Shown here piece by piece: positions 1 to 15,291 of a DNA stretch of 15,291 nucleotides. The notes beneath the pieces were generated by a model. The model ran no database searches. It worked only from the letters and a program-made list of their open reading frames with translations, and was not told the origin of the DNA. This DNA comes from Bacteriovoracaceae bacterium (lineage in GTDB: Bacteria > Bdellovibrionota > Bacteriovoracia > Bacteriovoracales > Bacteriovoracaceae), in contig JBMYPC010000074.1 of assembly GCA_049599895.1 (NCBI GenBank), positions 1 to 15,291 of the forward strand, read 5' to 3'. Within the stretch, counting starts at the first letter, position 1. Each line of letters starts with the position of its first letter. A program made the translations under genes and the position numbers.

Positions 1-64
1 AGTTGGTTAGAGCATCTCCCTTTTAAGGAGAGGGTCCTGTGTTCGAGTCACAGCGAGATCACCA
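1..64 (+). tRNA. tRNA-Lys (anticodon TTT), 5' end outside window
   Basis: Anticodon arm TCTCC-CTTTTAA-GGAGA, T arm CTGTG-TTCGAGT-CACAG, ends ACCA at 61-64. Confidence 0.95.
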
Positions 65-110
65 ACTGTTTAAAAATCTAGTCCCAACGACTAAAAGCAA
101 ACTCAAATTT

Positions 111-188
111 GCTCCCATCGTCTAGTCTGGCCTAGGACACCGCCTTTTCACGGCGGTAACAGGGGTTCGAATCCCCTTGGGAGTGCCA
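111..188 (+). tRNA. tRNA-Glu (anticodon TTC)
   Basis: Acceptor GCTCCCA/TGGGAGT, anticodon arm CCGCC-TTTTCAC-GGCGG (TTC at 147-149), T arm AGGGG-TTCGAAT-CCCCT, encoded CCA. Confidence 0.97.
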
Positions 189-348
189 TATTTGACCCCG
201 AAAAGTTAACTTAAGTGTTTAATTTTTCGGGGTTTTATTTTTTGTGCTCGATAAAGTCGGGGTCACTGGGGTCGTGTCAGTCGGCAAGGGTTCGGACTTT
301 ACTTTCGACTGCTCACTTTTCCATTTTTACATTCATGTGTGAATGGGT
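178..348 (+). repeat. 171-bp direct repeat, copy 1 (attL-like; begins in tRNA-Glu 3' end)
   Basis: Identical by eye to 3958..4128; flanks diverge at 177/3957 and 349/4129. Confidence 0.95.
195..243 (+). terminator. Intrinsic terminator after the tRNA pair
   Basis: 15-bp stem ACCCCGAAAAGTTAA / TTAATTTTTCGGGGT (one G-U pair), 9-nt loop, followed by TTTATTTTTT. Confidence 0.8.
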
Positions 349-862
349 TGTAATGGCCAATTAATTTCCCCATACAGGCGCATTTCTTGTCAATATATCG
401 AATTGTTCCATTACTTCCAAAGCAAGCTTCGACGTATTCTCTAGGGAACCTTTTATGAGCATCCTTAACTCTTAAATTGTGAATTGTAGTTTTAGAAAAA
501 CGTAAGACTTTGTTTATCTCCTTTCTAATTTCTACTAGGTCCTCCCTTGGCAATCCTCCGAGTGGCATATCCTTCTTCCTCACTGGCATGTGGACCTTAC
601 TTCTAAATTGTTTTTCTATTGAATTTCCAGAGTGGTAATCCCTTACTTCTTTTAAAGGTAGACCGTCAGGGGTAGATTTCACCATAAGGGCCAATTCCTG
701 AATTTCGGTTAATTTGTCCTCCGGTACCCTTCCCCTTGAAAACCACTTCTCCATGGCCGAGCTAGAAACCTCCAAAACACCGGCCCAATCCTTCCTAGAA
801 AATCCCTTCATTAGATTCTCTAACTCCTTTCTGGTGACTTCCTTGACCCTTTTTCTGGACAT
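299..862 (-). CDS. Protein with N-terminal Cro/XRE-like helix-turn-helix and uncharacterised Cys/His-containing C-terminus
   Basis: SRKDWAGVLEVSSSAMEKWFSRGRVP fits the HTH pattern. ATG at 862 is preceded by AGGTGG; the ORF track starts at GTG 871. Confidence 0.65.
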   Translation of the reverse strand: MSRKRVKEVTRKELENLMKGFSRKDWAGVLEVSSSAMEKWFSRGRVPEDKLTEIQELALMVKSTPDGLPLKEVRDYHSGNSIEKQFRSKVHMPVRKKDMPLGGLPREDLVEIRKEINKVLRFSKTTIHNLRVKDAHKRFPREYVEACFGSNGTIRYIDKKCACMGKLIGHYNPFTHECKNGKVSSRK

Positions 863-957
863 TGTGACCACCTATACAGCCTATTCTAGTTTTATAGGTC
901 TGTATCGGCAATAAAGTCTGGACCTAAAGGGCCCCGAGTCCTTCACTCTCATATTTC

Positions 958-982
958 AGTCGTTATAATTTATTTATAGTCG
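958..982 (+). repeat. 25-bp direct repeat, copy 1
   Basis: AGTCGTTATAATTTATTTATAGTCG, 23/25 identical to 3852..3876. Confidence 0.9.
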
Positions 983-985
983 CCT

Positions 986-1375
986 CTATTGTTTTTTCGG
1001 AAAAAGCTTTTTCGGAGGATTGTCTTTATGTGAAAAACGAGGAATGAGAGCATCAGCAACAATTTTACCGTCTTTAACAAAAACTAATAAATAGTATTCA
1101 TCATATAAAACTTGTGTGAATTCATCACATTTATAATAGCAGGAAAAATCAACTCCATCTCGGTCCTTTAGAATCTCATATGGAAAAATCACATATGCAT
1201 AATCATATCTATCGTCAGCAACCAAAGAATCTTTTCTAATATCAAAGTTACCAAACTCCTCACTCCAATCAACTACACCAGAAGAACAATAGTAAATTTT
1301 TCCAAACAGAATAAGGGCGAAAAGCAGCAAAGCAGCGACTATTACCTGAATTGTTCTAAGAAATATCTTTTTCAT
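986..1375 (-). CDS. Small N-terminally membrane-anchored protein (candidate immunity protein)
   Basis: 129 aa; hydrophobic segment IQVIVAALLLFALILFG; start overlaps the upstream stop (ATGA, 1372-1375). Confidence 0.65.
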   Translation of the reverse strand: MKKIFLRTIQVIVAALLLFALILFGKIYYCSSGVVDWSEEFGNFDIRKDSLVADDRYDYAYVIFPYEILKDRDGVDFSCYYKCDEFTQVLYDEYYLLVFVKDGKIVADALIPRFSHKDNPPKKLFPKKQ

Positions 1376-1977
1376 TTTTTATTAATTCTAAACCGCTTAT
1401 CTTTAATTAAACGTTCAAATTCTTTAATAATGTCTTGATCAAAGTTGGCCGATTCTTTTAACTTTTCACCTGCTTTTAAACCTAAAGAATTATTATGATA
1501 GTCCATATCAATAGATTCCTTTGTTCTTTTTGATGTTTGCTCGTGAGCATCAAGAAATTCTTTTGCTCTTTCAACTCCTATCTCTTTTGCTGAATAAGCA
1601 GACCATATAAAGTGCCTAAAAGCATCAGCTTCATTGTCTTGAGCAGGGTCTCCTGGATATCTTTTTTGCATTAAATTGATGGCCTTACGAGACGTTTTAT
1701 ACATCTTATACGCATCATATGGGTGTTTAAGTATTAAATCTAATTCTGCATCAGTTATTCTGACTTTTTTGTCGTAAGTCTTCAGTAGATCCATGAGCTT
1801 TCGATTACGATAGTCTTTATAGTAGTTTTCATCGTACTTAGAAGAAATTGCTAATCGTTGTCCTTTTGTTGGTAAAAATACTAAAAGAGAGGGTTTGAAT
1901 ATTGCGCTTTTTATTGACTCAGGAACATAGATTTTAATATTGACACTACTATAGCCACCATTTGAAGTTAACTTCAT
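1372..1977 (-). CDS. DUF6973-like (Wnt-related lipocone) domain protein; probably the 3' half of a frameshifted gene starting at 2684
   Basis: Motifs NEADAFRHFIWSA, G...A..FLDAHE and MDYHNNSLG. ATG at 1977 overlaps the upstream TGA; the ORF track extends to 2007. Confidence 0.7.
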   Translation of the reverse strand: MKLTSNGGYSSVNIKIYVPESIKSAIFKPSLLVFLPTKGQRLAISSKYDENYYKDYRNRKLMDLLKTYDKKVRITDAELDLILKHPYDAYKMYKTSRKAINLMQKRYPGDPAQDNEADAFRHFIWSAYSAKEIGVERAKEFLDAHEQTSKRTKESIDMDYHNNSLGLKAGEKLKESANFDQDIIKEFERLIKDKRFRINKK

Positions 1978-2684
1978 ATATAATAACCATCTTCCGTCAA
2001 AACCCACACCGGCTCGACTACTTTAGCTCTGCTGGAGGATGGTGCAAAAATTGACTCCAACTCTCTATAATCACTTTGGTATTCTCTAAAGCTATCTTTT
2101 AAACTTTTATACTGACCAATAACCTTTTGTACTTCTGAAGGTAGAAAATCGTTGGCAAAATTCTTGAATTGATTTTCAATAAATCTATTTCCAAAACGAC
2201 TCCCCGACAATAACCCCCATATTAGAGTTTGAGTATCTTCTCTTGATATTTGTTTGATATGATAGCTCTTTAATATTTTAGGAAGCCAGCTTCTGGACTT
2301 TAAATCTAATTTTCCCGGATAAGCTCCATCCCCTTTCAGGCCACGCTCTTCACCTCCATGAATACAAAAACTCTGGAGATTAAACTCATACGATTTACCT
2401 GGGGATAATCTCAACTCTCCCGAATTCTCTAACTCTCCAAGTTGTTTTAAAGTTTCCCTTCTTAGAATAGAGGCTATCTTCAAAGATTCTAAATCGCTTG
2501 CTTCATCTAGATCACTTATAATTTTTTTGAATATGTTGTAATGGCTCTGAAAACCCTGGGGCCTACTAGACTCTCTAGACTTCCAATAAGCATGATTAAA
2601 CTTTGTCTTCACGGGACCCGCTGTTGAACAAGAAAGCAACAAAATAAGTGGGAACAAAATGATGATAAGCTTATTACGCTTCAA
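1974..2684 (-). CDS. Lipoprotein with thioester-domain-like motifs; probably the 5' half of a frameshifted gene
   Basis: Signal peptide with lipobox LLSC (Cys19); SFCIH and TQTLIW motifs; TTG start overlaps the fic stop. Confidence 0.65.
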   Translation of the reverse strand: MKRNKLIIILFPLILLLSCSTAGPVKTKFNHAYWKSRESSRPQGFQSHYNIFKKIISDLDEASDLESLKIASILRRETLKQLGELENSGELRLSPGKSYEFNLQSFCIHGGEERGLKGDGAYPGKLDLKSRSWLPKILKSYHIKQISREDTQTLIWGLLSGSRFGNRFIENQFKNFANDFLPSEVQKVIGQYKSLKDSFREYQSDYRELESIFAPSSSRAKVVEPVWVLTEDGYYI

Positions 2685-3724
2685 TACTTACCTCTTTTAA
2701 TAACCTTCCAACTTGCTCCTCGTCCCTTTCCTTCCAATTTAACAATGTTATTCCTTTTAAACTCTGTTAAAACTTTCTTTATCAATTGATTGCTAACAGA
2801 GGGGCACAACCGTTCAATTTCTTTTAGTGAAAATGGCCCAACCTGTGAGAGAATAATTTTTTTTACAACATCAGTCTTCCCACCTCTTGACTCTACTAAT
2901 GGTGCCTTCTCTACTTTTTCACTCAATTCGTTATATGCTCTTCGTATATGAGAGACAAAAAACATCATCCAAGGAAAAGGATCGTGATTACCCTCATGCC
3001 AATCTTGAGAGGATTTTTTCAACACTGAGTAATAGTCCTCTTTTTGCTCTTCAACAATCCTTTCTAGGCTAATATATTTACCAATCTCGTAATTGTTTTG
3101 ATACAGAAGTAGAATTGTTAATAGTCTTGAAACTCTGCCATTGCCATCTCGAAAAGGGTGAATACATAAAAAATCTAATATTGTATTTGCGACAATCCCT
3201 AAGTCAGGACCATCTTGCTGAGAAATACAATGGCGGTATTTTAAGCACATCTGCTCGATTGCATTTGGTGTTTTTTCTGCAGAGACAGGAACAAAGCGGA
3301 CAACCCTTTCTCCATTTGGAAATATTTCTATAATCTCATTATTCTTTTTTTTAAATTTTCCAGCATCTCCACTAGAGTTTTCTTGGCAAAATAAATGGAG
3401 CCTCAAAAGAGTTTCTGAATTAATCTCAACTTTTTTATAGTTTTTATGAATCCAAGAAAGAGCATTTTTATATCCTAAAACCTCTTCTTCGGGTCGATCA
3501 ATAGGACGGACTTTTCCAGATAATAGGGGAAGTAATCTATCTTTTTCAACTTCAACTCCCTCAATCCTATTAGACGATTCTGCACTTTGAATAATGGCAA
3601 TTTCACGAAGAGCACCCATGGCCTCAGGTCGTGTTTTGTGCCACAAATCTTGCTTCCCTTTGGCCTCCATACACTGTCCAATAAGCCAAACAACGCCCTC
3701 AGGATATTTTAGTTCATTACTCAT
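2681..3724 (-). CDS. Fic-family protein (AMPylase) with N-terminal inhibitory motif and C-terminal winged HTH
   Basis: Canonical HPFRDGNGRVSR; inhibitory SNRIEG; C-terminal FSLKEIERLCPSVSNQLIKKVL...GKGRGASW; GGAG RBS upstream. Confidence 0.95.
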   Translation of the reverse strand: MSNELKYPEGVVWLIGQCMEAKGKQDLWHKTRPEAMGALREIAIIQSAESSNRIEGVEVEKDRLLPLLSGKVRPIDRPEEEVLGYKNALSWIHKNYKKVEINSETLLRLHLFCQENSSGDAGKFKKKNNEIIEIFPNGERVVRFVPVSAEKTPNAIEQMCLKYRHCISQQDGPDLGIVANTILDFLCIHPFRDGNGRVSRLLTILLLYQNNYEIGKYISLERIVEEQKEDYYSVLKKSSQDWHEGNHDPFPWMMFFVSHIRRAYNELSEKVEKAPLVESRGGKTDVVKKIILSQVGPFSLKEIERLCPSVSNQLIKKVLTEFKRNNIVKLEGKGRGASWKVIKRGKY

Positions 3725-3765
3725 ATTTCAAAGCTCCATTTCTAGACACTATAATTGCACAAAAG

Positions 3766-3810
3766 GTAGCTAATTAGTAGCCTACTATTTGTTAAGAGTA
3801 GCTATTTAGT
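3766..3810. promoter_or_regulatory. Candidate operator upstream of fic (13-bp direct repeats plus short palindrome)
   Basis: GTAGCTAATTAGT 3766..3778, GTAGCTATTTAGT 3798..3810, AGTAG-C-CTACT 3776..3786. Confidence 0.4.
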
Positions 3811-3851
3811 CCAGACTATACTTTCTTTTCTTCTCTGTTCTTACTCACTTT

Positions 3852-3876
3852 AGTCGTTATAATTATTTTATAGTCG
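3852..3876 (+). repeat. 25-bp direct repeat, copy 2
   Basis: AGTCGTTATAATTATTTTATAGTCG, 23/25 identical to 958..982. Confidence 0.9.
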
Positions 3877-3940
3877 GCATACATACCAGACTATATCGAG
3901 ATCTCAAATAGATAGCTCTCTAAATATTGAATATCTCTAC

Positions 3941-3981
3941 TCGGGGTCAAAAAAGGCTGGGAGTGCCATATTTGACCCCGA
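3941..3981. other. attP-like palindromic recombination site with 7-bp core
   Basis: TCGGGGTCAAAAAAGGC-TGGGAGT-GCCATATTTGACCCCGA; arms 15/17 complementary; core equals the tRNA-Glu 3' acceptor strand. Confidence 0.7.
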
Positions 3982-4128
3982 AAAGTTAACTTAAGTGTTT
4001 AATTTTTCGGGGTTTTATTTTTTGTGCTCGATAAAGTCGGGGTCACTGGGGTCGTGTCAGTCGGCAAGGGTTCGGACTTTACTTTCGACTGCTCACTTTT
4101 CCATTTTTACATTCATGTGTGAATGGGT
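3958..4128 (+). repeat. 171-bp direct repeat, copy 2 (tRNA 3' fragment, terminator, last 50 nt of HTH gene)
   Basis: Identical to 178..348 at offset 3,780. Confidence 0.95.
3975..4023 (+). terminator. Duplicate of the post-tRNA terminator hairpin
   Basis: Same stem-loop and T tract as 195..243. Confidence 0.7.
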
Positions 4129-4420
4129 AAACTTCTCAAACACACTTGCTCCCGCTTTTCGTGACACTAAACTAGAAGAAGACAATAACTTTGGATATGG
4201 TGCTCATTGGTGGCTGAATGTCGATATTCCTAAAAAGAAAGAAGTTCGCCCCTTTCCTATGCTCTCTGAAAAAGTTCTCTTAGGCCTAGGTCACCATGGA
4301 CAAATGCTTATTGTTCTTCCCACCCTCAATGCAGTTATCGTAAGAAATGGATCTGATAAAATAGAAAAGATTGATCGTAATATCTTTTTTAGTCTTTTCT
4401 TAAAAGGAGTAAGGCAATGA
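4121..4420 (+). pseudogene. C-terminal fragment of a beta-lactamase-family serine hydrolase (5' truncated)
   Basis: EWV..S...YGAHWWLN...GLGHHGQMLIVLPTLNAVIVRNG is typical of the family C-terminus. No SxxK; the upstream in-frame sequence is repeat DNA. Confidence 0.8.
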
Positions 4421-4695
4421 AGTATCTCTCGCTTCTTATTCTCCTTTCACTGAACTCAAGCTGTTTTCATATTGCCAAGGCCTTGCCCTCAAACTTTGCA
4501 AAAGAATACTGCTCCTGCCGCTTTGTAATGAATCAGACTGATGAGTATTGTGAAGACTATGTAACCCTTGAACAACTTCAGGTAGGAAGTTACGAGGTGG
4601 ACGAGGAAAGAAAAATTGTTCGCGCGAGATGGTTAGGAGTTGAAAGTGAGGCCATGCACTACTCAAAGTTTAGTGGATGTGGCCTTAGTCGATAG
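4417..4695 (+). CDS. Small lipoprotein with AKxxCSCxFV motif, commonly associated with beta-lactamase-like serine hydrolases
   Basis: Signal peptide ending SSC; AKEYCSCRFV and terminal SGC; AAGGAG RBS; ATGA overlap with the hydrolase stop. Confidence 0.75.
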   Translation: MKYLSLLILLSLNSSCFHIAKALPSNFAKEYCSCRFVMNQTDEYCEDYVTLEQLQVGSYEVDEERKIVRARWLGVESEAMHYSKFSGCGLSR

Positions 4696-5308
4696 AAACT
4701 TCCTGATTAACTGTTTTAATTCTTTTTCTCAATCCCTGAATAAATCTTAAAGGCCATTTCTTTTGAATTAAGTTCATAAGCCAAGTAGGAATCCAGCCTT
4801 TCATATCCCCATGAAATTCAAAGTTTATTTCTGTGAGATCTGGCGCTTTTTGAGTCAGGATGAGATTTAAGGTTTTAACATCCGCTTGAACATGGGAATT
4901 GTCTTTAAGAGAATTGTCCTCAATTGATTTTCCCGATAACAGATAGGAGCCATCTGAAATCTTTTGAATTTTCCCTTTTAAAAGAAACTCTCTGTCTGAA
5001 GCAGGCCAAGGAGTTTTGTAGTATTCAGAGAAAATATACTCCTCTTTGCTCAAAGCCTTATGCATTTTTACGTTCTTAAGTTTTGGTGACCACAAGTGTT
5101 TTTTCTTATGATCTCTTAAGATTTTTAATACTTGTTCTAAAGATGCACCCACGAAGCCATACGCCTTAAAAGGCATAATCGCCCCTTTTGTCTGTTTAGT
5201 ATAGATAGTTATTCCATCCTCTTCAGCGACCTTAGTCCACTCATTTGTGAAAGCACAAAAAGGGATAATAAAAACAAGAGCTAAGCTAACATACTGAAAA
5301 CACTTCAC
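4685..5308 (-). CDS. Secreted START-domain (lipid-binding) protein
   Basis: Signal peptide; WTKVAEEDGITIY, TPWPASDREF, DMKGWIPTWLMN; GTG start with AAGGA RBS. Confidence 0.9.
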   Translation of the reverse strand: MKCFQYVSLALVFIIPFCAFTNEWTKVAEEDGITIYTKQTKGAIMPFKAYGFVGASLEQVLKILRDHKKKHLWSPKLKNVKMHKALSKEEYIFSEYYKTPWPASDREFLLKGKIQKISDGSYLLSGKSIEDNSLKDNSHVQADVKTLNLILTQKAPDLTEINFEFHGDMKGWIPTWLMNLIQKKWPLRFIQGLRKRIKTVNQEVSID

Positions 5309-5516
5309 ATTTGGTCCTTTTCCATGAAACCTCCAGAAAAGTTTGGCATATCAAACATGTTATTATCAACAAATTTTTGCTTTGTTTGTGAAAATCTAAC
5401 GATCATTTTCTTTACGCCCCTAGAAGTTTTTCAGGTTTAACCAACTGTAAATAGAGGCGTGATAAATTTTAATGAGTTTAATCATTATTTTATTTGTCTT
5501 TTTTCTGGAGAAAAAA

Positions 5517-7802
5517 ATGCTTCGAGCTTTTTCTGCTTCTAAAAAACTATCATTTCTTTTGATCGTTTGTTCGTTAACTTTTAGCGGTTTTACTTTTGCC
5601 CAACCTCAGTTAGGTACTAATCCTCAGAACTATGTTGAAAGAGCCGTCTTTCAAACATTTTGGGAAAAGATTGATCTCAAAGGAAAAAATAAAGATAGCT
5701 TTCTTGGAATGTTTAGCCTTCTTGCTCAAGGAGAATCATCGATTAAGCACGACACCCTAAAGATTATTGATGGTTCTGGTGGAACTAAAATGATTATGTT
5801 CTCCTATGACAAAAGAGATGGAAACCCAGATACGTTCAAACAATTTATTGAAGATGCTAAGATGATGGCCCTTACAGAAACTGAGTACAAAGTCGTAAAA
5901 GACGATCAAAAACAAAAAGCCGAAGATGCTGCCGCAAAAGCAAAAGAAGCAAAAGATAAGCTTGCTGCTGGAGTTGCTGAGTTTAAGGCCAATGCGATCA
6001 CAACCACTCTCCATGTCCCAAAAGCCGAGTTCAATACAATTGATAAGATTAAAACTCATCTTTATTTTAAAGCCGGCGAATTACCAGCTGAATATGGTGA
6101 AGTTATTGATATGAGCGCTTCAGGTTCGTCAATATTCTTGATTACAAGCCAAGAAAGAATTGAAATCATCCAAGACTACCTCACAAGCCTTACAGCCGAT
6201 GCTTTTCGAGTCCACATTATTGTCCGGGCCATTACCGCTGATCAAAATGATATGTTCAGCTTTGATGCAAATCTAAAAGACCTTGGAATTGGTTCGGCCA
6301 TGATGAGCTATGGTGGAACAGCGGCAGCTGAATCTCTGGCAAGCCTAATTTTTGAAACTGATGATTTCACCAGTGCATTAAGTGTTGAGAAGTCAAAAGG
6401 AAATAGTCTAAGAGTTGCTGAACTCTCTGCAACAGTTGACTGCTCTCAAGAAGAGCTAGTTGAAATGAAGAGCACCGAGTTTAGACCTCAAATTTCGATA
6501 ACAGCCGAAGGTGTTCCCGTCTTTCAAGAGACTGAGGCCGGTGAAAAACTTATTATTAAAGACCTCTCAATTACAAACCTTCACGAGTACCAACATCAAA
6601 TCAAATCTAAAAGACAGGCCCTTAAGGAACTCTATTTCGAAGGTGAAGAAGCAAAAGAGCTTCAAAGACTACAGGATGAGGGTGCCCACCCATCAGTTAT
6701 CTATGAAAAGGCGCAAGAGTTAACAGCCAAGTTTGATAAAATTGTTGAAACGGAATATAAGCCTCTTTTTAAGCAACTTGAAATTCGTTTTAAATATGAA
6801 GTTTCATCTGGTTCTCACACGAGTGAAGTTTCTAGTGGAGAAGCTGTCTCTTCAGGGAGAGGTGAATCCTATAACAAAGGTGAAGCTGTTGTTCGTCATG
6901 GTAAAACTGTTTTCCTTGGTGGGTTTCAAAATGAAATCACAAAAGATAGCCAAAGAAGACTTCCGGTCTTAGGAGATATCCCTGTTTTTGGCTTACTTTT
7001 TGGTAGTACAAGTGAACAAGAGTCCAAAAGTGAAATTGCTTTTACAACCAGTGCGGTTATTGAAAGTCATTACACACAGAAATATCTAAGAAGCAGTTTT
7101 GATCTCGCTCGAAACGCTCTTGAAAAAGGAGTCACTGGAGTCCACCATCCCTGGCGTACTCTTGAAAGTCCTACTCAAGAATGGATTGTTTCTCATGAAA
7201 AAGATGATAATGGACAATATATTGGAGCAGGACAAAGAGTAAAAAAGAAGTTTGAAGGAAGTAAACCAGATCGAGTTTTTGCTGGAGAAGCTTTTGTTAA
7301 GGCAGTCATTGCTCCTTTAAAAGAAGGTGGAGTGATTGGAACTTGGCGAGACCTTGATATCGCGATTGGACACCTGGAGACCATGGACACAAGACCAAAG
7401 GGTGAGCTTTTTGAAGAACTCAAAAACCTTCAAGCGGCTAATCGCCTTGAATATCAAGGAGCAAAAAGAGTCGCTCAACATTTCCCAGGAATTGAAAAAA
7501 TCAATATCGAATCAATGGGAACTGATGGGCTCGATTTTATCGAAAGGCTAACTCTTGCTCAGATACAGATTTGGGTCACCACAGGAGTTTATCTTGAACT
7601 CATCGAAGTTCTTGCAAACGCGAGAGAAGAAGGACGTATTGGTGGTGTTTCAAATAAGAAAAAACATCCCCTGGGATATACTCTTGAAAAAGGTGTTCTT
7701 ACTGAATATATGAGAGAGAAAGTTCTTAATCACACTGGTGAGAAAACGATAAAAAAGAAAAGCTCATCTCGTGAAAGCTTTAAGCCACGATGGAAAAAAT
7801 AA
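5517..7802 (+). CDS. Secretin-family (GspD/PilQ-like) outer-membrane protein, divergent
   Basis: GKTVFLGGF...RRLPVLGDIPVFGLLFGSTS...KSEIAF secretin signature. ATG 5517 follows GGAG and starts a signal peptide ending TFA; the ORF track starts at 5472. Confidence 0.85.
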   Translation: MLRAFSASKKLSFLLIVCSLTFSGFTFAQPQLGTNPQNYVERAVFQTFWEKIDLKGKNKDSFLGMFSLLAQGESSIKHDTLKIIDGSGGTKMIMFSYDKRDGNPDTFKQFIEDAKMMALTETEYKVVKDDQKQKAEDAAAKAKEAKDKLAAGVAEFKANAITTTLHVPKAEFNTIDKIKTHLYFKAGELPAEYGEVIDMSASGSSIFLITSQERIEIIQDYLTSLTADAFRVHIIVRAITADQNDMFSFDANLKDLGIGSAMMSYGGTAAAESLASLIFETDDFTSALSVEKSKGNSLRVAELSATVDCSQEELVEMKSTEFRPQISITAEGVPVFQETEAGEKLIIKDLSITNLHEYQHQIKSKRQALKELYFEGEEAKELQRLQDEGAHPSVIYEKAQELTAKFDKIVETEYKPLFKQLEIRFKYEVSSGSHTSEVSSGEAVSSGRGESYNKGEAVVRHGKTVFLGGFQNEITKDSQRRLPVLGDIPVFGLLFGSTSEQESKSEIAFTTSAVIESHYTQKYLRSSFDLARNALEKGVTGVHHPWRTLESPTQEWIVSHEKDDNGQYIGAGQRVKKKFEGSKPDRVFAGEAFVKAVIAPLKEGGVIGTWRDLDIAIGHLETMDTRPKGELFEELKNLQAANRLEYQGAKRVAQHFPGIEKINIESMGTDGLDFIERLTLAQIQIWVTTGVYLELIEVLANAREEGRIGGVSNKKKHPLGYTLEKGVLTEYMREKVLNHTGEKTIKKKSSSRESFKPRWKK

Positions 7803-7808
7803 AAAAAG

Positions 7809-8963
7809 TTAGTTACCTCGAGAAAGAACTTCTTTAACTGAATCTTCTATTGTTGATTCAATTTCAATGCATCTGTTTAATGCACACATTTGAAGTTTTT
7901 CTCTTAGAGATTGATCTTGCATTATCTTTTCAATTTGAACAAACAGCTCGTGATAATGATGAGGTCTATAAATAAGCCCCGTTTTCTCATTCTCAACAAT
8001 TTCTCCAGCACCGCCAAGTCCCGTTGAAACGACAGGTATATTCGCCTTAAATGCTTCAAGAAGAATCCTTCCAAAAGGTTCTTTTTTTAAGGCACTATGA
8101 ACGAGAAGGTCTGTTTCAGAGAAAATCTTTTTAGGAGACTCAAGTCCCATAAATTGAATCAGTTTCGATTTCTTAAGTTTGAAAAGATCTTTATCATATC
8201 CTTCATGTCCACCTGCTGTTTGATAAATCTGTGCCCCATAGATTCGAACCTCTTCAACGCCAAGGTCAATAAGGCCCTTTTCATAAACATTAACCATATG
8301 AATCAAATCATGAATGCCTTTCCAGGGGGCAAGCATGCTTACACTTGAGATGACTTTAATTTCCTTTGTCTCTTTTTTAGTAATTTTCTCACCAACAGGA
8401 TTATAGATACGCTTCACTCCAACTTTTCTCTTAGTCATCTGAACTAATTCTTGAACAACATCATTTGAGTTTCCAATGAAAGTCAGTTTGAAACTTTCAC
8501 CACTGATCAGTTTCCAAATGATCTTAAAGATTCCTGTGTCTATTGGATAATCTCTAAAATGCCATACAAAATGACCTTTAAATGAAAAGAATCTTGCACA
8601 AAGATAAAACGGAAAAGCGATTTTATTTCCATTGCACCAAAGGAGGTCCTGATCTTTAATAATCCTCCTCAACTTAAAGATAAGAAGCCCTAACTGCATT
8701 AAAACAAATAGGGAAAGTGGATTCTTAATCGATCGAGAGATTTGAAAGAGTGATTTTGGATAACTTAAAGTGAGAATTTTAGCATGAGGGATATTGAGTT
8801 TAATAAAGTTTTCGATCTTATCTGTATCACCTTTATCAAGACTTGGAATAAGAAACTTAATTTCTTCTGACGTTCCTTTAAGGCCTAGCTTTATTTGATG
8901 AATAAAACTTCTTTCAGCGCCACCAAGGTAGGGAGAATTCAGTATAAAAAGCCTCTTTTTCAC
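7809..8963 (-). CDS. GT4 family glycosyltransferase
   Basis: N-terminal GGAERS; PWKG; EPFGRILLEA (E-x7-E). Confidence 0.92.
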   Translation of the reverse strand: MKKRLFILNSPYLGGAERSFIHQIKLGLKGTSEEIKFLIPSLDKGDTDKIENFIKLNIPHAKILTLSYPKSLFQISRSIKNPLSLFVLMQLGLLIFKLRRIIKDQDLLWCNGNKIAFPFYLCARFFSFKGHFVWHFRDYPIDTGIFKIIWKLISGESFKLTFIGNSNDVVQELVQMTKRKVGVKRIYNPVGEKITKKETKEIKVISSVSMLAPWKGIHDLIHMVNVYEKGLIDLGVEEVRIYGAQIYQTAGGHEGYDKDLFKLKKSKLIQFMGLESPKKIFSETDLLVHSALKKEPFGRILLEAFKANIPVVSTGLGGAGEIVENEKTGLIYRPHHYHELFVQIEKIMQDQSLREKLQMCALNRCIEIESTIEDSVKEVLSRGN

Positions 8964-10003
8964 CCAATCTCCCTTAAAAGCATTTTAACGAGATCTTTAT
9001 AACGATCAAGGCCATGTTCCTTTTTCACATGATCAAAGGCATTTTTTGATAAATTCTCATATGAGTTCTTGAGAATTTCCCAAGTATGAGAAACAGTGGT
9101 CCTATCAATTGAATCGAGAACAATTCCATTATATTGATCATGAACATTTTCCGAAAGTCCCCCTGATCGAAAAACCACACCTGGAACCCCGTAACAATTA
9201 CCTTCTAATATTGAAAGCCCAAAGCCTTCATAAAAGCCAAGATGCGAATGATCAAGAGAAAGAAGGAGATTTAAATGAGACTCTTTATAAACTTGCTCTC
9301 TTTTTTCATCAGTCATCTCCTCTAACGAATGAATTGTCAGTTTAGAAGACTTACGAGTTGCCGAAAGCGTCAGCTCCACCTCTTTCTCTGATATTTCCTG
9401 AAGAAGTTCACAAAAAGTAATGACGCCATCAATATTTTTGTGAGGGACATCACGAGCAATACAGCAAACTTTAATGACTTCTTTTTCTAGAGTCTTTTTA
9501 TGAAACTCACTATGAGAAGTCTCAATACAATTGGGAAGAATGATATCTCGTGCATAGTTAGGTCTATAACCTAGAGAACATAATTTTTCATAAGTAAATG
9601 CTGAAATAAAAAAGTTATACTTGGCATTCTCAAGATAATCCAGCTGAGGTCTTTTAAGGAGTCTTTTAACGAATTTCTTTAGAGGATTGGGGGATGTGAA
9701 AAGAATTTCTGAGCCATGAATAAAATTAGCGTAAGGAACATCTGTTTTTGAAAGCTTTAAAAAATACCCACCTAAATAATGGACATTAAAAATCATTTGA
9801 AATTCATCTAACTTTGAAGCCTCAATCTTCCTTTCTTTCCAATTAAGGAGCTCGTAATCGATCTCAAGATCCTTAAAGACTTTCTCAAAGTTTAGTGTAT
9901 AGGAAGTTAGTCCACCAAGTTTGGGAAGATAATCAGAGGTAGTCAGAAGGAACTTAGACGAACTCAACAATCTCTCCAACTTTTTTGATTCGTCCTCTCT
10001 CAC
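8960..10003 (-). CDS. GT4 family glycosyltransferase (start uncertain, possibly TTG near 9970)
   Basis: DYLPKLGGL; HGSE; PHKNID; EGFGLSILEG. Confidence 0.9.
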   Translation of the reverse strand: MREDESKKLERLLSSSKFLLTTSDYLPKLGGLTSYTLNFEKVFKDLEIDYELLNWKERKIEASKLDEFQMIFNVHYLGGYFLKLSKTDVPYANFIHGSEILFTSPNPLKKFVKRLLKRPQLDYLENAKYNFFISAFTYEKLCSLGYRPNYARDIILPNCIETSHSEFHKKTLEKEVIKVCCIARDVPHKNIDGVITFCELLQEISEKEVELTLSATRKSSKLTIHSLEEMTDEKREQVYKESHLNLLLSLDHSHLGFYEGFGLSILEGNCYGVPGVVFRSGGLSENVHDQYNGIVLDSIDRTTVSHTWEILKNSYENLSKNAFDHVKKEHGLDRYKDLVKMLLREIG

Positions 10004-11120
10004 CTCTACTCAGAAGATATTCTGATAAAAGCTTCGCAACCGAATGATGAGAAAAGAGTTTTTCACAGTTCTCCCGTGCACCTTGGCGTAAGTTCTCATC
10101 ATCGAGGGAGTTTATCGCTAAACTTATTTTCTCTTCAAAGTCTTTTTGATTACCTTCTTCGAAAATAAACTTTTCAAAACCTACTGCCTTCATCACTTCA
10201 GGGATGGCACCACTACTCGACCCCACAACAAGGCATCCAGAAGAAGCTGCTTCAATTATGACTCTCCCAAACTGTTCTTTCCAAAATTCCCGAGTAAGTG
10301 ATGGTAAAAGAAGTATGTCGATATCCTGATAGAAGAGATGGGCCTGGTCGTGAGGTAAAGTTCCTATAAAATCGATCTTTTCATCTGCCTTTACCAAACT
10401 ATCTAATGGGCCTCCACCAACAATTTTAATGTCATCATTGGGCCCTAGAAGGCTTGAAGTAAGATTCAGTATCATTGAGATACCTTTTTCTTCAGTGAGT
10501 CTTCCAATGTAGCCTAAAGTTATCTTTCCTTGTTTGCCCCTACCTTTCTCTCTAAACTGAAATTTCTTTTCATTATAGGAAAAGGGTAAATAATAACACT
10601 CTTGCTTAAGATTCTTCCAGGCAACGACGTCCTGAGTTTCACTACAGCATCCCATGATCATTTCGACGTCACGATTATTCATTCTTTCGAAATGCCTTAA
10701 GAAATGAAGTTTTGTCTTTTTGATGTTTTGACAAACCCATAGCCAAATTTGGGTCCTCTTATTTTTAGTAAAAAGCTTAACAAAGCTTAAAACAAATAAT
10801 GAAAGACTCCATGTCTCTTGGGTTAAGATAATTTTTCGATATTCTTTTTTTCTTAAGATATTCCATAGCTGAATCGGACAGAAAAAAGTCAAGCTTCCAT
10901 TTCCTCTAAAATAAGTATTCAAAGCATGAACATCACTAAAAGAAGAATCCACTTGTTCATCAAATTGATACTCAAGATTTTTTATAAGATTGGCCTTCCA
11001 AGTCTTGGGACAAATAATATCAACTTCAATACTCTGGTCACTTGCAAGATTTGACCAAACCTCACGATTTGTATTTACAACTAAAGGATGACCAACGACT
11101 AAAACTTTTACTTTTTGCAT
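9954..11120 (-). CDS. GT4 family glycosyltransferase
   Basis: GYIGRLTEEKG; LPSLTREFWKEQFGRVIIEA; SSSGAIPEV. Confidence 0.93.
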   Translation of the reverse strand: MQKVKVLVVGHPLVVNTNREVWSNLASDQSIEVDIICPKTWKANLIKNLEYQFDEQVDSSFSDVHALNTYFRGNGSLTFFCPIQLWNILRKKEYRKIILTQETWSLSLFVLSFVKLFTKNKRTQIWLWVCQNIKKTKLHFLRHFERMNNRDVEMIMGCCSETQDVVAWKNLKQECYYLPFSYNEKKFQFREKGRGKQGKITLGYIGRLTEEKGISMILNLTSSLLGPNDDIKIVGGGPLDSLVKADEKIDFIGTLPHDQAHLFYQDIDILLLPSLTREFWKEQFGRVIIEAASSGCLVVGSSSGAIPEVMKAVGFEKFIFEEGNQKDFEEKISLAINSLDDENLRQGARENCEKLFSHHSVAKLLSEYLLSRGERGRIKKVGEIVEFV

Positions 11121-12292
11121 AATTCGGTATAGCTCTCTTCTAAGTTCTTCGTCATTTTTTCAATGGAAAACTCATTTCTTATCTTTCTCTCTCCAGAAGT
11201 TCTGAGCTCCTCAAAATTATTATTCTGAGAATGCTTTTCAAGAATCTCTTTAAGAATATTCTCTAATTCAACTTCAGCCCCCTCCTGATGAGAATGAAAA
11301 ATAAAGCCCGTTTTTTTAGAATTTAAGACTTCTCTCACTCCGCCAGCAGCTCCTCCAACAACAAGGCATCCTTGAATCATTGCTTCGGCAACAACCAACC
11401 CAAAAGGCTCGGGAGTCGTTGAAGAATGAATAAAGAGGTCTGAAGCTGCAAAATAAAGTGAGAGTTCGTTAGTAAAGGGATGAAATTCAATGATTCCATC
11501 ATCGACAAGATTTTTTGATTCCGATTTTAATTGTTCGAGGTACAGGATATCACTCTCTCGCTTTGCTTCTCCAACAATAATGAGTTTGCATTTTTTCACA
11601 ATCTCTTTATCTTTCTCATAGAGATTATTTAAAGCTCGAATAGTTAGGTGATAACCTTTCCATGAACAAATTCTTCCCGCTGTTATCATAAGATAATCTC
11701 GGCCCTCAATTAATTGTTCACGCAAGCTTAAAATCCGCTGTTCTTCATGCTCCTCAAAGGGAATTCCATAATGAACAATCCTTTCAAACTTATTCGGCTT
11801 TCTTAAATTCAGAAACTGATGATGAAGATTTTTTAAATACTGAGTATTAAAAAAAAGTGCATCAAATGATGTCGCCGTCGCGAGCTTATCTAATGTTCCT
11901 CCAACAGGGCCATGCTGAAACCAAACTTTTGGAATTCCAGTACTTCCCCCCAAACTCATGGCAATTTGGGAATAAGGCATTGTATTGTTAATAACTGTAA
12001 AATCATGTGCTTTAAAAAAAGACATAAGAAATAAACGAAGTTTTCCCAGACTTTTTATTGAAGTTAACTTAAAAGGAAAAGGGAGCACTGAAACTTCAAT
12101 ACCATGCTCTTTTGCAATTTCAACAAATTCACCTGAGTTAAAAAAAAGAATATGAGGTTTATACTCCCCGTATTTGAGGTGGCCAAGACAAGCATTAAGG
12201 ACAAACCTTTCTGCACCACCAAGATATCCATTCGGTGAGACATAAAGTACCCGTCTTTTTCCCTCAGATTTCAATTCATCAGATTGATTCAT
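11108..12292 (-). CDS. GT4 family glycosyltransferase
   Basis: GGAERF; AGRICSWKG; EPFGLVVAEAM. Confidence 0.93.
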   Translation of the reverse strand: MNQSDELKSEGKRRVLYVSPNGYLGGAERFVLNACLGHLKYGEYKPHILFFNSGEFVEIAKEHGIEVSVLPFPFKLTSIKSLGKLRLFLMSFFKAHDFTVINNTMPYSQIAMSLGGSTGIPKVWFQHGPVGGTLDKLATATSFDALFFNTQYLKNLHHQFLNLRKPNKFERIVHYGIPFEEHEEQRILSLREQLIEGRDYLMITAGRICSWKGYHLTIRALNNLYEKDKEIVKKCKLIIVGEAKRESDILYLEQLKSESKNLVDDGIIEFHPFTNELSLYFAASDLFIHSSTTPEPFGLVVAEAMIQGCLVVGGAAGGVREVLNSKKTGFIFHSHQEGAEVELENILKEILEKHSQNNNFEELRTSGERKIRNEFSIEKMTKNLEESYTELCKK

Positions 12293-12350
12293 AGTCTTTA
12301 TTTTAAGTGATTCTTATAACGATGCGAGCTTTTTTCAAGGAAACTTAGAA

Positions 12351-13553
12351 TTATGAGGCCTTTTTATCATTGATGTCCGCATCGTTGAAATTAATAATAA
12401 GGTCATCCTCTGTAAGTCCATCAGCATCATTCAAAAATTCAATGTGAAAATCGTCAATTTGTGAAGATTCGATCACTCGTACATCTTTTTTTCTTAGATA
12501 CTCAAAGAGGCTTTTAGGATTCATCTCAAGGGTATCAGTTCCCTTCCACTGGTTCTTCCCAACATATAGATAAAGACCAATCAAAGAAAAGGAATAGAAG
12601 AAATAACTCGATACCGGAAAGCTCTTAAGAAACGTTAATGGGAGTGCCAGTGCCACACCATGAAAGATGGCCATGACAGTTCCGACATTATTAATTTTAA
12701 TTTTAAATTCATCTCTTAAAAGATGATGAACGTGCAATTTATCACCACTAAAAAGAGAGCGCTTATTATAAAGTCTTCTCAGAAAGCTTATCCCTGTCTC
12801 AACCATATAAATATTTAAAGGCATCACAGACATCACAAATCTGGCCCCCATCGGATAACCTTCAAGGCGATCAAAGATGAGGCAACCAAGAAAAACATTA
12901 GCAAGACCAATAAAACTTCCACCAATTTCACCCATGTGAACAATTGATGGCAACTTATTAAAAAAGTAAAAAGCGCCAAGTCCAGTAGCAAAGCTTATCA
13001 GAACTGGAAAATAACTATAATCTCCAGCCTGATGGAAAAGATAGGCCACCAGCATAAGATTTGAAATCGTCATTTTAATGGTCAGAGTATCAAGACCATC
13101 CAGGAGATTGGCACCATTCATAGTTCCCAGTGACCAAAACATAAGAACAATAAAAGCAAGAACCTGATAAGAGCTAATAATTTCAAAAGACATTGTCACA
13201 GCAAAGAAAGTCACAGCGACAAATTGAAAGATCAGTTTTGCTATCGGGCGAAGCTCATATTTATCGTCAAGATAACCATAGAGAACGACAATGCCCGCAC
13301 TCACCATCCATCTATGAATAATCCAGTTTGAAGATAGATCGTGCTGAAAAAGAAAATAGACAATTCCAGCAAAGACCCCCATCGCATAAGGGAAGCCTCC
13401 TAGTTGAACAGCATTGGTTGTCGATTTACGAGCAGGCACATAGAGAAAGCTTCTTAAAAGTCTATAAGGATTGTCTGCAGCAATTCGGAGCAGCTTATAT
13501 AGACACAAGCTTACTGCAAAAGTTATTAATCCAGGGGTCAAGTTTTCAAACAC
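12351..13553 (-). CDS. wecA: MraY/WecA/TagO-family undecaprenyl-phosphate sugar-1-phosphate transferase
   Basis: Multi-pass membrane protein; LGG, GYLDDK, NGANLLDGLD, HMGEIG, DKLHVHH motifs; GTG start. Confidence 0.88.
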   Translation of the reverse strand: MFENLTPGLITFAVSLCLYKLLRIAADNPYRLLRSFLYVPARKSTTNAVQLGGFPYAMGVFAGIVYFLFQHDLSSNWIIHRWMVSAGIVVLYGYLDDKYELRPIAKLIFQFVAVTFFAVTMSFEIISSYQVLAFIVLMFWSLGTMNGANLLDGLDTLTIKMTISNLMLVAYLFHQAGDYSYFPVLISFATGLGAFYFFNKLPSIVHMGEIGGSFIGLANVFLGCLIFDRLEGYPMGARFVMSVMPLNIYMVETGISFLRRLYNKRSLFSGDKLHVHHLLRDEFKIKINNVGTVMAIFHGVALALPLTFLKSFPVSSYFFYSFSLIGLYLYVGKNQWKGTDTLEMNPKSLFEYLRKKDVRVIESSQIDDFHIEFLNDADGLTEDDLIINFNDADINDKKAS

Positions 13554-13660
13554 TCTTCAACATCCAATTTGATTGTCTAAGTGGCATCACTTACACCTAG
13601 CTATTCGTCAAAATTGGCATATTGATTTAGGGAAACTTCGAAAGAAAACAGATAATTAGA

Positions 13661-14686
13661 TTATTTTGGGCATAATTCTTGGTAATACTTGTAAAGAGTG
13701 GCAGCAATATTCTGCCAAGAATATTTTTTCGTGTATGCTTGAACAGTTTTATCCGTTATGGAGGCCTTTTCATAACCATCCAACTGAGTCATTAACTCCG
13801 ATAAATGATGAGGGTCAATAAAGGTTGCTGCCTCAGGGAACACCTCTTTTGTAGCACCATTTTTAGTAATAAAAATTGGTGTTCGATTCATTATTGATTC
13901 AAGACCCACCAAAGAAAATGTTTCAAATTGACTCGGAATAAGAGTGGCCTTCGCATTATAATAAAGCGAGCTAAGAACCTTCTTATCTTCAATTCTGCCA
14001 AGAAAAAAAATGTTCTCACTCTTAAACTTCATACAAGATTCATAGTACTGAACATCATTCAATCTCTTATCACCGACAACAACAAGATTATGATTTCCCT
14101 TACTGAAAACTTCTAATAGCCCTATAAGATTTTTGACTTCTGAAAACATTCCCACAAAAAGAAAATACTGATCTGGCAAAGTCTGAACCAGTTGATGATT
14201 GGGATCGGAAAAGTTTAAAAGTGAGCTCTCCTTAAAGTCGAATCCATTGGGAAGAACTCTTAATTTATTGGGATCAACATCATAGGCAAGGCAGAGCCTG
14301 TCTTTTTCAAGATTTGTCGTTGGCAGAATGAGATCTGGATATTTCAAGTTGTAATCAAGGCTGCTTTCGAATTGTCCTTTAAAAATATTTTTTTTGAGGA
14401 TGTTTTTCATTTTTTTCTTAAGGAGGTGACGACTTTCAATTCGAGGCCAGTGGGTTGGTGTGACAACGAGAGGTTTTTTTAGGTCTTTAAAATAACTCCA
14501 AAGATGATGATCAATTGTACTAAAGTGATGAATAACATCACATTCATGCACCTTACTCTTAAATGGGTCAAAGAACTCAACATCAACACCTAACTCTCTA
14601 AGATAGAAAGCAAGCTTTTCCATTATAACCTCTCCCCCTCCAGGAGTTTGAAATGCGAGAGTATAAGTATTAAAGAGTACTTTCAT
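13661..14686 (-). CDS. GT4 family glycosyltransferase
   Basis: PGGGEV; FLFVGMFSEVKN; PSQFETFSLVGLES; YSWQNIA. Confidence 0.92.
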   Translation of the reverse strand: MKVLFNTYTLAFQTPGGGEVIMEKLAFYLRELGVDVEFFDPFKSKVHECDVIHHFSTIDHHLWSYFKDLKKPLVVTPTHWPRIESRHLLKKKMKNILKKNIFKGQFESSLDYNLKYPDLILPTTNLEKDRLCLAYDVDPNKLRVLPNGFDFKESSLLNFSDPNHQLVQTLPDQYFLFVGMFSEVKNLIGLLEVFSKGNHNLVVVGDKRLNDVQYYESCMKFKSENIFFLGRIEDKKVLSSLYYNAKATLIPSQFETFSLVGLESIMNRTPIFITKNGATKEVFPEAATFIDPHHLSELMTQLDGYEKASITDKTVQAYTKKYSWQNIAATLYKYYQELCPK

Positions 14687-15291
14687 ATTTTCTCTTTTAT
14701 GATTTGAATGTAATTCTCAAATTCTGCTTTCTTTTTATCATGATAAGAGGCCATTTCACTACGAACTCTTTCGTAATTTTCTTCAAGATAACTTATTTTA
14801 TTATCGAGTAATTTTGAATCTAATTCAAACTCTTCCGCAGAATGGATCCCATCTGAAGCTCGAATTAAAAACTCTGAAAGACCGACGTCTTGCAAAAACC
14901 TTTCACTCTTAAACTGCTGGTCAATACATATTGAAGGAACACCACTTAAAAATAAAATTAATCCAGCATGAAACCTCATTGTTAAACTAAAATGACTCCC
15001 TTTGAAAACATCCATTATTTCTTGATAAGATTCCCCAATAAACAATGTGACATTAGTTTGTTCTTTGTATTTTTGATGAACTTTCCGTGCAAATTTAGCA
15101 TCTCCACTGGTGCCAAATGGCAATAGGGTTACTTTATAGCCAAGTTCAATGAGTTTAGAGATTGCTTCATGGATAAATTTTATAAGAGCAGTATGCTTCA
15201 TTTCAGCATTGGGCCAAATCTCGGGATTGGTGAAAGTCTCATAAAAGTTAAAAACAACGACTTTTTCTGAACCAACCTCATTGATATTATC
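14683..15291 (-). CDS. Polysaccharide pyruvyl transferase family protein (5' end outside window)
   Basis: TMRFHAGLILFLSGVPSICI...K motif; the frame stays open for 30 more codons from 15201 to the window edge. Confidence 0.85.
   Translation of the reverse strand, partial: DNINEVGSEKVVVFNFYETFTNPEIWPNAEMKHTALIKFIHEAISKLIELGYKVTLLPFGTSGDAKFARKVHQKYKEQTNVTLFIGESYQEIMDVFKGSHFSLTMRFHAGLILFLSGVPSICIDQQFKSERFLQDVGLSEFLIRASDGIHSAEEFELDSKLLDNKISYLEENYERVRSEMASYHDKKKAEFENYIQIIKEKI

Follow-up and report, generated by a model that had tools for sequence, protein, structure and literature searches.

A 3,780-bp integrase-less block beside a tRNA-Glu gene of a Bacteriovoracaceae bacterium as a candidate remnant of tandem integration

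Organisation of the tRNA-Glu locus

The window analysed here, a stretch of 15,291 nucleotides from a Bacteriovoracaceae bacterium, is the entire contig JBMYPC010000074.1 (C74) of assembly GCA_049599895.1 (266 contigs, 97% complete). Next to a tRNA-Glu gene it carries a 3,780-bp unit in which no integrase gene was found and which is set between two copies of a perfect direct repeat. With a probability of roughly 0.55, this single-copy block is the remnant of a tandem array of a larger tyrosine-integrase element (or of near-identical sister elements, at either attachment (att) site) that was cut by two deletions. The reading is based on the symmetry of the right-hand joint, a tandem arm motif, scars of decay, joints supported by reads and the lack of a matching helper integrase, together with precedents both for decayed elements in tandem at att sites and for attP joints between tandem copies. 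The features of the locus are as follows.

1-63, plus strand: 5'-cut tRNA with anticodon TTT, read by eye as tRNA-Lys, upstream of tRNA-Glu
111-188, plus strand: intact tRNA-Glu(TTC) identified by ARAGORN, putative integration target
178-188, plus strand: putative att core, comprising the 7-nt 3' strand of the acceptor stem (178-184), discriminator and CCA; the sole tRNA sequence repeated
178-348, plus strand: repeat copy 1, read as attL core, left (P'-type) arm of the element and 50 nt of a gene end
194-234, plus strand: terminator-like hairpin with a T run behind it (folding energy -21.1 kcal/mol, z -5.1)
258-273, plus strand: tandem GGGGTC motifs of period 9, likely integrase arm-type sites
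3941-3981, plus strand: attP/attI-like joint with 17-bp inverted arms (15/17 complementary) around a 7-nt spacer (3958-3964), within one unbroken Logan contig
3958-4128, plus strand: repeat copy 2, read as what is left of a second copy or of a sister element, cut off by a deletion
4121-4420, plus strand: last ~99 codons of a host serine hydrolase, overlapping the repeat by a few bases
4417-4695, plus strand: gene for a Cys-containing product of 92 aa, next after the hydrolase in relatives and marking the return to host DNA

The 171-nt repeat, which a preliminary description made from the sequence alone had traced to the 3' end of the tRNA gene, is present as two copies (178-348 and 3958-4128) that are 100% identical and spaced 3,780 nt apart. 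Each contains the final 11 nt of tRNA-Glu, that is, the 3' strand of the acceptor stem (7 nt), the discriminator and CCA, followed by 160 nt that include the final 50 nt (299-348) of a 190-aa open reading frame (ORF). The distal tRNA end fragment (11 nt, 3958-3968) has the same orientation as the gene and lies 3,780 bp from it. Five ORFs, all on the minus strand, are situated between the copies.

Inverted repeats at 3941-3957 and 3965-3981 flank the 7-nt spacer and are complementary at 15 of 17 positions. Symmetric flanks around a 7-nt overlap are typical of tyrosine recombinase sites. The symmetry exceeds chance expectation: at least 14 matches occurred in 7 of 6,540,684 genome windows, and all three windows with at least 15 belong to this locus. 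A 9-nt motif is common to both arms of the joint, and the 17 nt of tRNA-Glu to the left of the spacer match the arms at 7-8 of 17 positions. The GGGGTC tandem occurs in the genome only at 258 and 4038, within the two repeat copies. None of 200 shuffled sequences folded as stably as the hairpin at 194-234, which was missed by a terminator scan with different loop and stem rules.

The relatives used for comparison belong to the same bacterial family, none of them to the same genus. Among 40 relatives searched, matches to the tRNA-Glu region stop at query positions 188-196; the 160 nt after the tRNA are therefore not fixed host sequence in these genomes, in keeping with their earlier assignment to the element. 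The tRNA-Glu loci of 19 relatives were compared, 17 of which gave 18 rows (two for L017, none for L022 and L024). A period-10 tandem about 50 nt after the CCA was present in 5/5 rows with an integrase-like ORF, as opposed to 1/13 without, and Pfam confirmed the single integrase tested among these ORFs. Two of the four integrase-bearing regions fetched yielded an attR, at 5.2 and 6.2 kb. In both of these simple insertions the core measures only ~20 and ~26 bp, with unrelated host sequence after attR, and the arm motif recurs ~130 nt before attR (2/2). Because the integrase-bearing tRNA-Glu ends of relatives show comparable arms, the 160 nt past the CCA look like an element arm and the joint like an arm-core-arm arrangement. 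The preliminary description had proposed that the right junction joins the right end of the element to its own left end, as in an attP, and the element-type features of the 160 nt, unmatched in relatives, agree with this.

Within the family, tRNA-Glu islands that carry an integrase (those of G023, G015 and others) resemble the window in their target tRNA, in a terminator-like hairpin followed by tandem arm repeats after the CCA and in their small size (about 5-6 kb). They differ in possessing an integrase of ~400 aa beside attL, a normal attR, a core of ~20-26 bp that starts in the T stem and arm repeats of another motif, with period 10 and offset 51-52, compared with period 9 and offset 70 in the window. 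At a further locus (L061, 1,500-3,900, genome G003), tRNA-Glu is duplicated together with its terminator at a distance of 985 bp, and a Fic-like gene lies behind the second copy.

Genes within the unit and their decay

The following features lie within the unit.

299-516, minus strand: 3' remnant of a secreted-enzyme-type gene with a Cys-rich C-terminal module, in frame with the helix-turn-helix (HTH) part and matching the C-termini of proteins P0002 and P0005; boundary approximate
517-862, minus strand: repressor-like HTH gene, 3'-truncated (residues 4-113 match four stand-alone proteins; profile E 1e-23); boundary approximate
955-982, plus strand: 28-bp direct repeat, copy 1
986-1375, minus strand: 129-aa gene of no known family, candidate immunity or partner gene
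1372-2684, minus strand: frameshifted lipoprotein-like gene with a conserved N-terminal part and a variable C-terminus (DUF6973)
2681-3724, minus strand: intact Fic-domain protein of 347 aa (PF02661, E 4e-14; PADLOC SoFic, E 9e-34)
3849-3876, plus strand: 28-bp direct repeat, copy 2, within the sole GACTATA motif cluster of the genome (3814-3895)

The 190-aa ORF is a chimera of part of a repressor-like HTH gene and the 3' end of a secreted-enzyme-type gene. It gave seven matches among 1.84 billion representatives, one being itself. Four stand-alone HTH proteins of 121-147 aa match residues 4-113, while two long proteins match residues 126-185 with 53-57% identity; these residues align with the C-termini of P0002 (trypsin-like, 361 aa, 55% identity) and P0005 (540 aa). 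Separate profiles match the two halves (E 1e-23 for the HTH part and 3e-23), although the proteins in them were collected with the query and the profiles are hence not independent of it. The HTH part has a weak match, under cut-off, to Phage_CI_repr. Read by eye, and with no statistical test of the frame, the closing motif of the HTH family runs on for a few codons in another frame to a stop near 517, and the fusion point was therefore placed near 516. The repeat was previously said to include the last 50 nt of the HTH gene of the element: it does include the end of the ORF, but those nucleotides derive from the other gene, fused to the HTH gene.

The remnant of the Cys-module gene was found in 0/200 genomes of the phylum and 0/236 of the family. 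The module itself, a C-terminal stretch of ~60 aa (P0002 286-339, P0005 481-535, window 317-496 on the minus strand), is common to two unrelated secreted-type proteins and has no Pfam family. HxLR- and LIGH-like words noticed by eye in the C-terminus of the HTH ORF had suggested an integrase remnant; this was ruled out, since a profile of the integrases of relatives had no match there and the region resembles secreted enzymes.

A second scar lies in the lipoprotein-like gene, where ORFs of 236 and 211 aa represent one gene with a change of frame at ~1977-1980. Other searches with the two halves had yielded no long homologue; of three obtained by genome search, two (509 and 492 aa) can be aligned through the frame change, the third only as far as it. 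A Logan contig of the probable source run has no gap at this position. The two spanning homologues end in NlpC/P60, whereas the window gene ends in DUF6973 (E 1e-25). A conserved front, a variable tip and a small downstream gene form the pattern of polymorphic effectors, and the lipoprotein-like family, with its apparently swapped C-terminal domains, is a candidate family of this kind. Its members at L170 (1162-2688), L171 (589-2064) and L172 (1312-2679) have NlpC/P60 tips in two cases and an unnamed tip in one. The 129-aa gene has no match in Pfam, NCBIfam or PADLOC; a paralogue with 38% identity adjoins another DUF6973 ORF on contig C80.

Close homologues of the Fic protein are present in 18 of 236 family genomes. 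It contains an N-terminal S-x-x-x-E-G word, which we take to be a self-inhibition motif.

The cut host gene at the right flank

The sequence from base 4129 onward corresponds to the final quarter of a host gene for a serine hydrolase, a segment matched in 44 of 120 family genomes. In all 24 hydrolase homologues taken, it is the C-terminal 73-104 residues that align, and for 23 the alignment begins within the repeat, at 4112-4124; the full-length protein has ~345-410 aa in most relatives. The codon at 4124-4126 (W) falls in a column that is aromatic in 24/24 homologues and W in 18, and a microhomology of at least 5 nt is therefore likely at the deletion joint. The 5' three quarters of the gene were not found in the assembly, where only a paralogue of 22-25% identity is present. 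Inspection by eye showed ORFs similar to the 92-aa gene immediately after the hydrolase in most of the 24 loci. One hydrolase homologue had a weak score, below cut-off, to class C beta-lactamase-like hydrolases.

Read support and copy number

The main read set was a run containing 98% of sampled words. Logan contigs of this run cover 319-944 (depth 7.0), 952-4128 (depth 9.83) and 4099 onward (10,707 nt, depth 8.43), leaving 945-951 uncovered. The contig of 952-4128 (3,177 nt) runs unbroken and with zero differences over 3957/3958, which provides the read support that the preliminary description had left to be sought, and the 4128/4129 joint is also found in Logan contigs. The records that begin at 319 and 4099 each overlap the end of the repeat by 30 nt, one letter under the bridging rule of the tool; both exits from the repeat are therefore present as words in the reads. 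Among the Logan records listed, none showed a loose end of the kind expected from a normal attR or from an allele with the hydrolase intact.

After allowing for the doubled repeat, the depth of the unit was 9.0 against 8.4 for the flank, a ratio of 1.07 on what is a coarse measure, and one copy of the unit is therefore indicated. This depth rules out both a second copy that is fixed and a circle that is abundant; the tandem copy or excised circle envisaged earlier is not reflected in coverage, which was 1.07x rather than 2x. A run from a second study included four pieces of the cargo (722 nt) and one of the flank, with zero differences and at similar depth; no joint was covered. Run X2 covered no joint, and runs X3 and X4 contained next to none of the stretch.

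Origin of the unit

The sequence and reads show two identical repeat copies, a symmetric joint, a chimeric ORF, a frameshifted gene, a host gene cut short and single-copy depth; the order of events given here is inferred. A parent element would first have integrated at the 7-nt acceptor strand of tRNA-Glu. A second copy may then have stacked at the same site, giving attL, copy 1, attP/attI, copy 2 and attR in that order. A deletion within copy 1, with its joint near 516, would have joined the HTH gene to a cargo gene's 3' end, with loss of the intervening DNA, probably including the integrase. Finally, a deletion from 4128 at a short microhomology would have taken away almost the whole of copy 2 together with attR and the host DNA beyond it, leaving only the final quarter of the hydrolase gene. 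The joint implies that an integrase was needed at some past time; most simply this would have been encoded by the element itself, the gene having disappeared with the deletion behind the chimera. Under tandem decay the 3,780-bp unit need never have moved alone. It is now probably fixed, save for a possible RecA-dependent pop-out between the 171-bp repeats.

The absence of an integrase among the ORFs of the unit, claimed earlier, was corroborated in two ways: a Pfam scan of the five ORFs found no integrase family, and a profile of five integrases from tRNA-Glu islands of relatives found none in the six frames of 1-4700 (best E 0.3). Scans with Pfam and NCBIfam gave no integrase, relaxase or coupling-protein family among the five ORFs, and no replication or primase family.

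Several points weigh against tandem decay. The right arm is atypical, with a single motif copy 9-17 nt from the core as against ~130 nt in two relatives, and the repeated part of the tRNA is 11 nt long as against ~20-26. The main read set may be the source sample and so is not independent, and the join of tRNA to repeat at 177/178 is not among the Logan records listed, the tRNA region being tangled with the tRNAs of other organisms. No parent element or homologous island was found, and loss of the integrase is deduced rather than seen. The repeats have 0 differences in 171 bp while the unit has several disabling changes, which mildly favours decay before duplication.

Mobilisation of an intact mini-element in trans, as originally proposed, is disfavoured: the unit has a deletion scar in the HTH fusion and a frameshifted cargo gene, no attR and a depth of 1.07x, and no helper with matching arms was found. 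A decayed remnant, the outcome that was to count against that proposal, fits best on account of the internal scars, although the homologous islands by which it was to be recognised did not emerge.

A possible though doubtful history is that the unit lost its integrase first, was then excised and restacked in tandem through a cognate integrase supplied in trans, the array being frozen later by the deletion at 4128. This would suit a unit that keeps both att arms and whose repeat copies are identical despite its decay, and trans- and cis-mobilisation of decayed elements has been described (PMC7563491). Against it, the 97%-complete assembly has no integrase locus bearing the matching tandem arm motif, so that the genome search for a helper, suggested earlier, gave none. 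There are seven tyrosine-recombinase hits in the genome, and the motif is beside 0/7 of these loci. Only the hit on contig C10 resembles the tRNA-Glu integrases of the family (E 4e-50), and it is partial (profile positions 133-414 of 420) and followed by different arm repeats. The loci on C13, C28 and C83 carry different arm repeats, next to the ends of other tRNA or tmRNA genes, that on C193 carries a copy of a tRNA-Ser end, and the recombinases of C19 and C206 are presumably housekeeping enzymes. Four serine-recombinase hits were also obtained. Nor does the depth of 1.07x point to an abundant circle, and no replication or relaxase family is present among the five ORFs.

Further copies of the unit or its att site, which the earlier proposal would lead one to expect, were likewise not found in the genome. 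The att and arm pattern occurred in 1/237 family genomes, namely the genome itself. With two mismatches the att pattern matched 10/236 relatives, compared with 11 genomes for a reversed control; it had 0 matches in viral contigs, and none of its 18 matches in genome contigs and 41 in metagenome contigs followed a tRNA T-arm by eye. Relatives of the HTH gene with its context were found in 0/236 family genomes and 0/42 candidate metagenome stretches, and one further search recovered the gene itself alone; two weak viral loci and 4/400 phylum genomes had HTH relatives, again with no sister island, and the ESM Atlas held only sub-threshold HTH look-alikes. The family, phylum, genome, metagenome and viral collections thus contained no parent or sister element, blanks that are weak given that they include no genome of the same genus and that mobile DNA is often left out of assemblies.

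Two regions encountered in these searches are of separate note. Contig C13 (35,150 nt; L004) is a circular, phage-like contig of 35,095 bp with a 55-nt terminal overlap and a 463-aa integrase; at ~13,640-13,770 it has a complete attP, in which a copy of a tRNA 3' end is flanked on both sides by tandem arm repeats, and the target tRNA is not in the assembly. At 16,000-24,300 of contig C10 (L003), an island beside an fpg/mutM-like gene carries a 5'-damaged integrase of the family tRNA-Glu clade, a Fic fragment, a DUF6973-like ORF and a 351-bp near-duplicate.

More speculatively, the 3,780 bp could form an integrase-less cassette with a compact symmetric att site (17-7-17 bp, mimicking the T-arm half-site of the tRNA), circularised and stacked at tRNA-Glu by an unseen integrase in trans. 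Its cargo would be a repressor, a lipoprotein effector with a variable tip and Fic, with the 28-bp pair bracketing a 2.9-kb inner module. If true, the site would serve as a minimal att substrate and hint at an integrase specificity so far uncharacterised in the Bacteriovoracaceae, a family of predatory marine bacteria.

It is improbable that the right joint is an ordinary attR, 189-516 being host DNA or an older island remnant and the left copy having arisen when a chromosome with an empty site and an occupied one underwent illegitimate crossover near 516. The left block does end in a gene unrelated to the HTH gene, the terminator-like hairpin after the tRNA could be a host feature and the comparison set has no genome of the same genus; however, the 15/17 symmetry over the core and the 9-nt motif in both arms are features of an element, and the gene remnant, absent from the phylum and family genomes examined, is not conserved host sequence there.

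An assembly artefact is if anything even less probable. In this case a loop would have been unrolled once, the chromosome reading tRNA-repeat-hydrolase and the unit being circular or present in a varying number of copies, or circle-derived reads would have produced a chimera. The graph, a repeat with two exits, permits such a path, the 171-bp repeat may exceed the read length, contig ends show k=55 overlaps and the left join is missing from the Logan records listed. Nevertheless, Logan records 7 and 8 are both unbroken (3,177 and 10,707 nt), whereas the former would be split at the core by a normal attR allele and the latter by an intact hydrolase. The unit has close to flank depth (9.0 and 8.4) and no replication gene, and the second study's run yielded cargo and flank pieces with 0 differences at similar depth. 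The misassembly through circle-derived reads that had been raised as an alternative is accordingly unlikely, with the joints in Logan contigs at flank depth.

Derivation of the symmetric joint from a repetitive extragenic palindromic (REP)-like hairpin family and a Y1 (HUH) transposase is very unlikely: the genome has one Y1 transposase and three hairpins elsewhere (two on C193, one on C31) with GTCAAA...TTTGAC arms, one beside a tRNA-Ser 3' copy, but their inner part is 17 nt with a different centre rather than 19 nt holding the tRNA core, the first 4.3 kb of the window have no blastn match to the dispersed repeat family, and the tandem arm motif would be left unexplained.

Comparison with known systems

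Phage satellites (phage-inducible chromosomal islands and P4-like elements) are defined by an integrase together with primase or replication genes, and Pfam and NCBIfam scans of the five ORFs returned no such family.

Elements that have lost integration and transfer genes while keeping att sites, and tandems joined by a chimeric attI, are described in a review (PMC5704250); a survey counted 32 such cis-mobilisable elements (CIMEs) in 75 genomes (PMC7563491). The window resembles CIMEs and tandem accretion of the ICESt1/ICESt3 type (PMC5704250, PMC7563491): at the 3' end of a target gene, an element that has no genes for integration or transfer appears in tandem with another across an internal attI/attP-type joint. 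The lack of those genes is shared with CIMEs. Of the two att sites that a CIME keeps, attL is present, while the right site is of attP/attI type and no attR with host flank remains. It departs from the CIMEs so described in having no attR, a neighbour reduced to a 160-nt stub with an identical end and no parent integrative and conjugative or integrative and mobilisable element (IME) that was found, and in that the integrase-less unit adjoins the tRNA rather than lying distal to it.

Arrays of SGI1 contain up to six copies with attP joints (PMC2297512). Like SGI1/SXT arrays (PMC2297512), the window has a chromosomal attP joint between head-to-tail copies with identical ends, here by anatomy and contig support only. 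The copies in those arrays are complete and encode an integrase; in the window copy 1 is internally deleted, copy 2 is a 171-nt stub and depth is that of a single copy. The Islander study reports 125 tandems of two or more among 3,919 tDNA islands, an integrase being required (PMC4383910). As in Islander islands, a tRNA gene and a 3' fragment in the same orientation flank the cargo (2-200 kb in the islands; PMC4383910), whereas the window has no integrase gene and a fragment of only 11 nt. The locus is neither an Islander island nor an IME, because it has no integrase.

The locus most likely behaves as a decayed tandem, or possibly as a CIME, an ordinary genome scar and not a new mobile element. 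As such it offers a clean fossil of tandem integration followed by decay at a tRNA hotspot, of a kind missed by island finders that demand an integrase. A long repeat at a tRNA end and an absent integrase do not by themselves indicate a trans-mobilised mini-element.

Other repeats and flanking genes

The 28-bp direct repeats at 955-982 and 3849-3876 are identical at 25 of 28 positions and bracket the 2.9-kb cargo. They are likely an operator or promoter element or the boundary of an inner module; a promoter scan was near chance (15 against 10.6 ± 3.1). A genome search with the 28-bp pattern found no further site with fewer than three mismatches. A dif-like site was considered and rejected, as no other site was found within that limit in the genome and none in the loci of relatives searched.

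The GACTATA word also ends some copies of a dispersed repeat family of ~150 bp with an inner hairpin, found on C7 (43,360-43,510), C24 (10,455-10,605), C100 (5,197-5,470) and elsewhere. The Y1 transposase (C53, 3,546-3,872) lies ~1.5 kb from one copy of this family.

At the left end of the window, contig C84 overlaps positions 1-55, and its terminal ORF resembles ORFs upstream of the tRNA pair in relatives. To the right of the hydrolase remnant, a 776-aa ORF (5472-7802, plus strand) has a secretin domain (E 5e-13) with long flanks lacking assignment. It is followed at 7809-15201 by a run of minus-strand ORFs, which, read by eye, are presumably glycosyltransferase and polysaccharide-synthesis genes.

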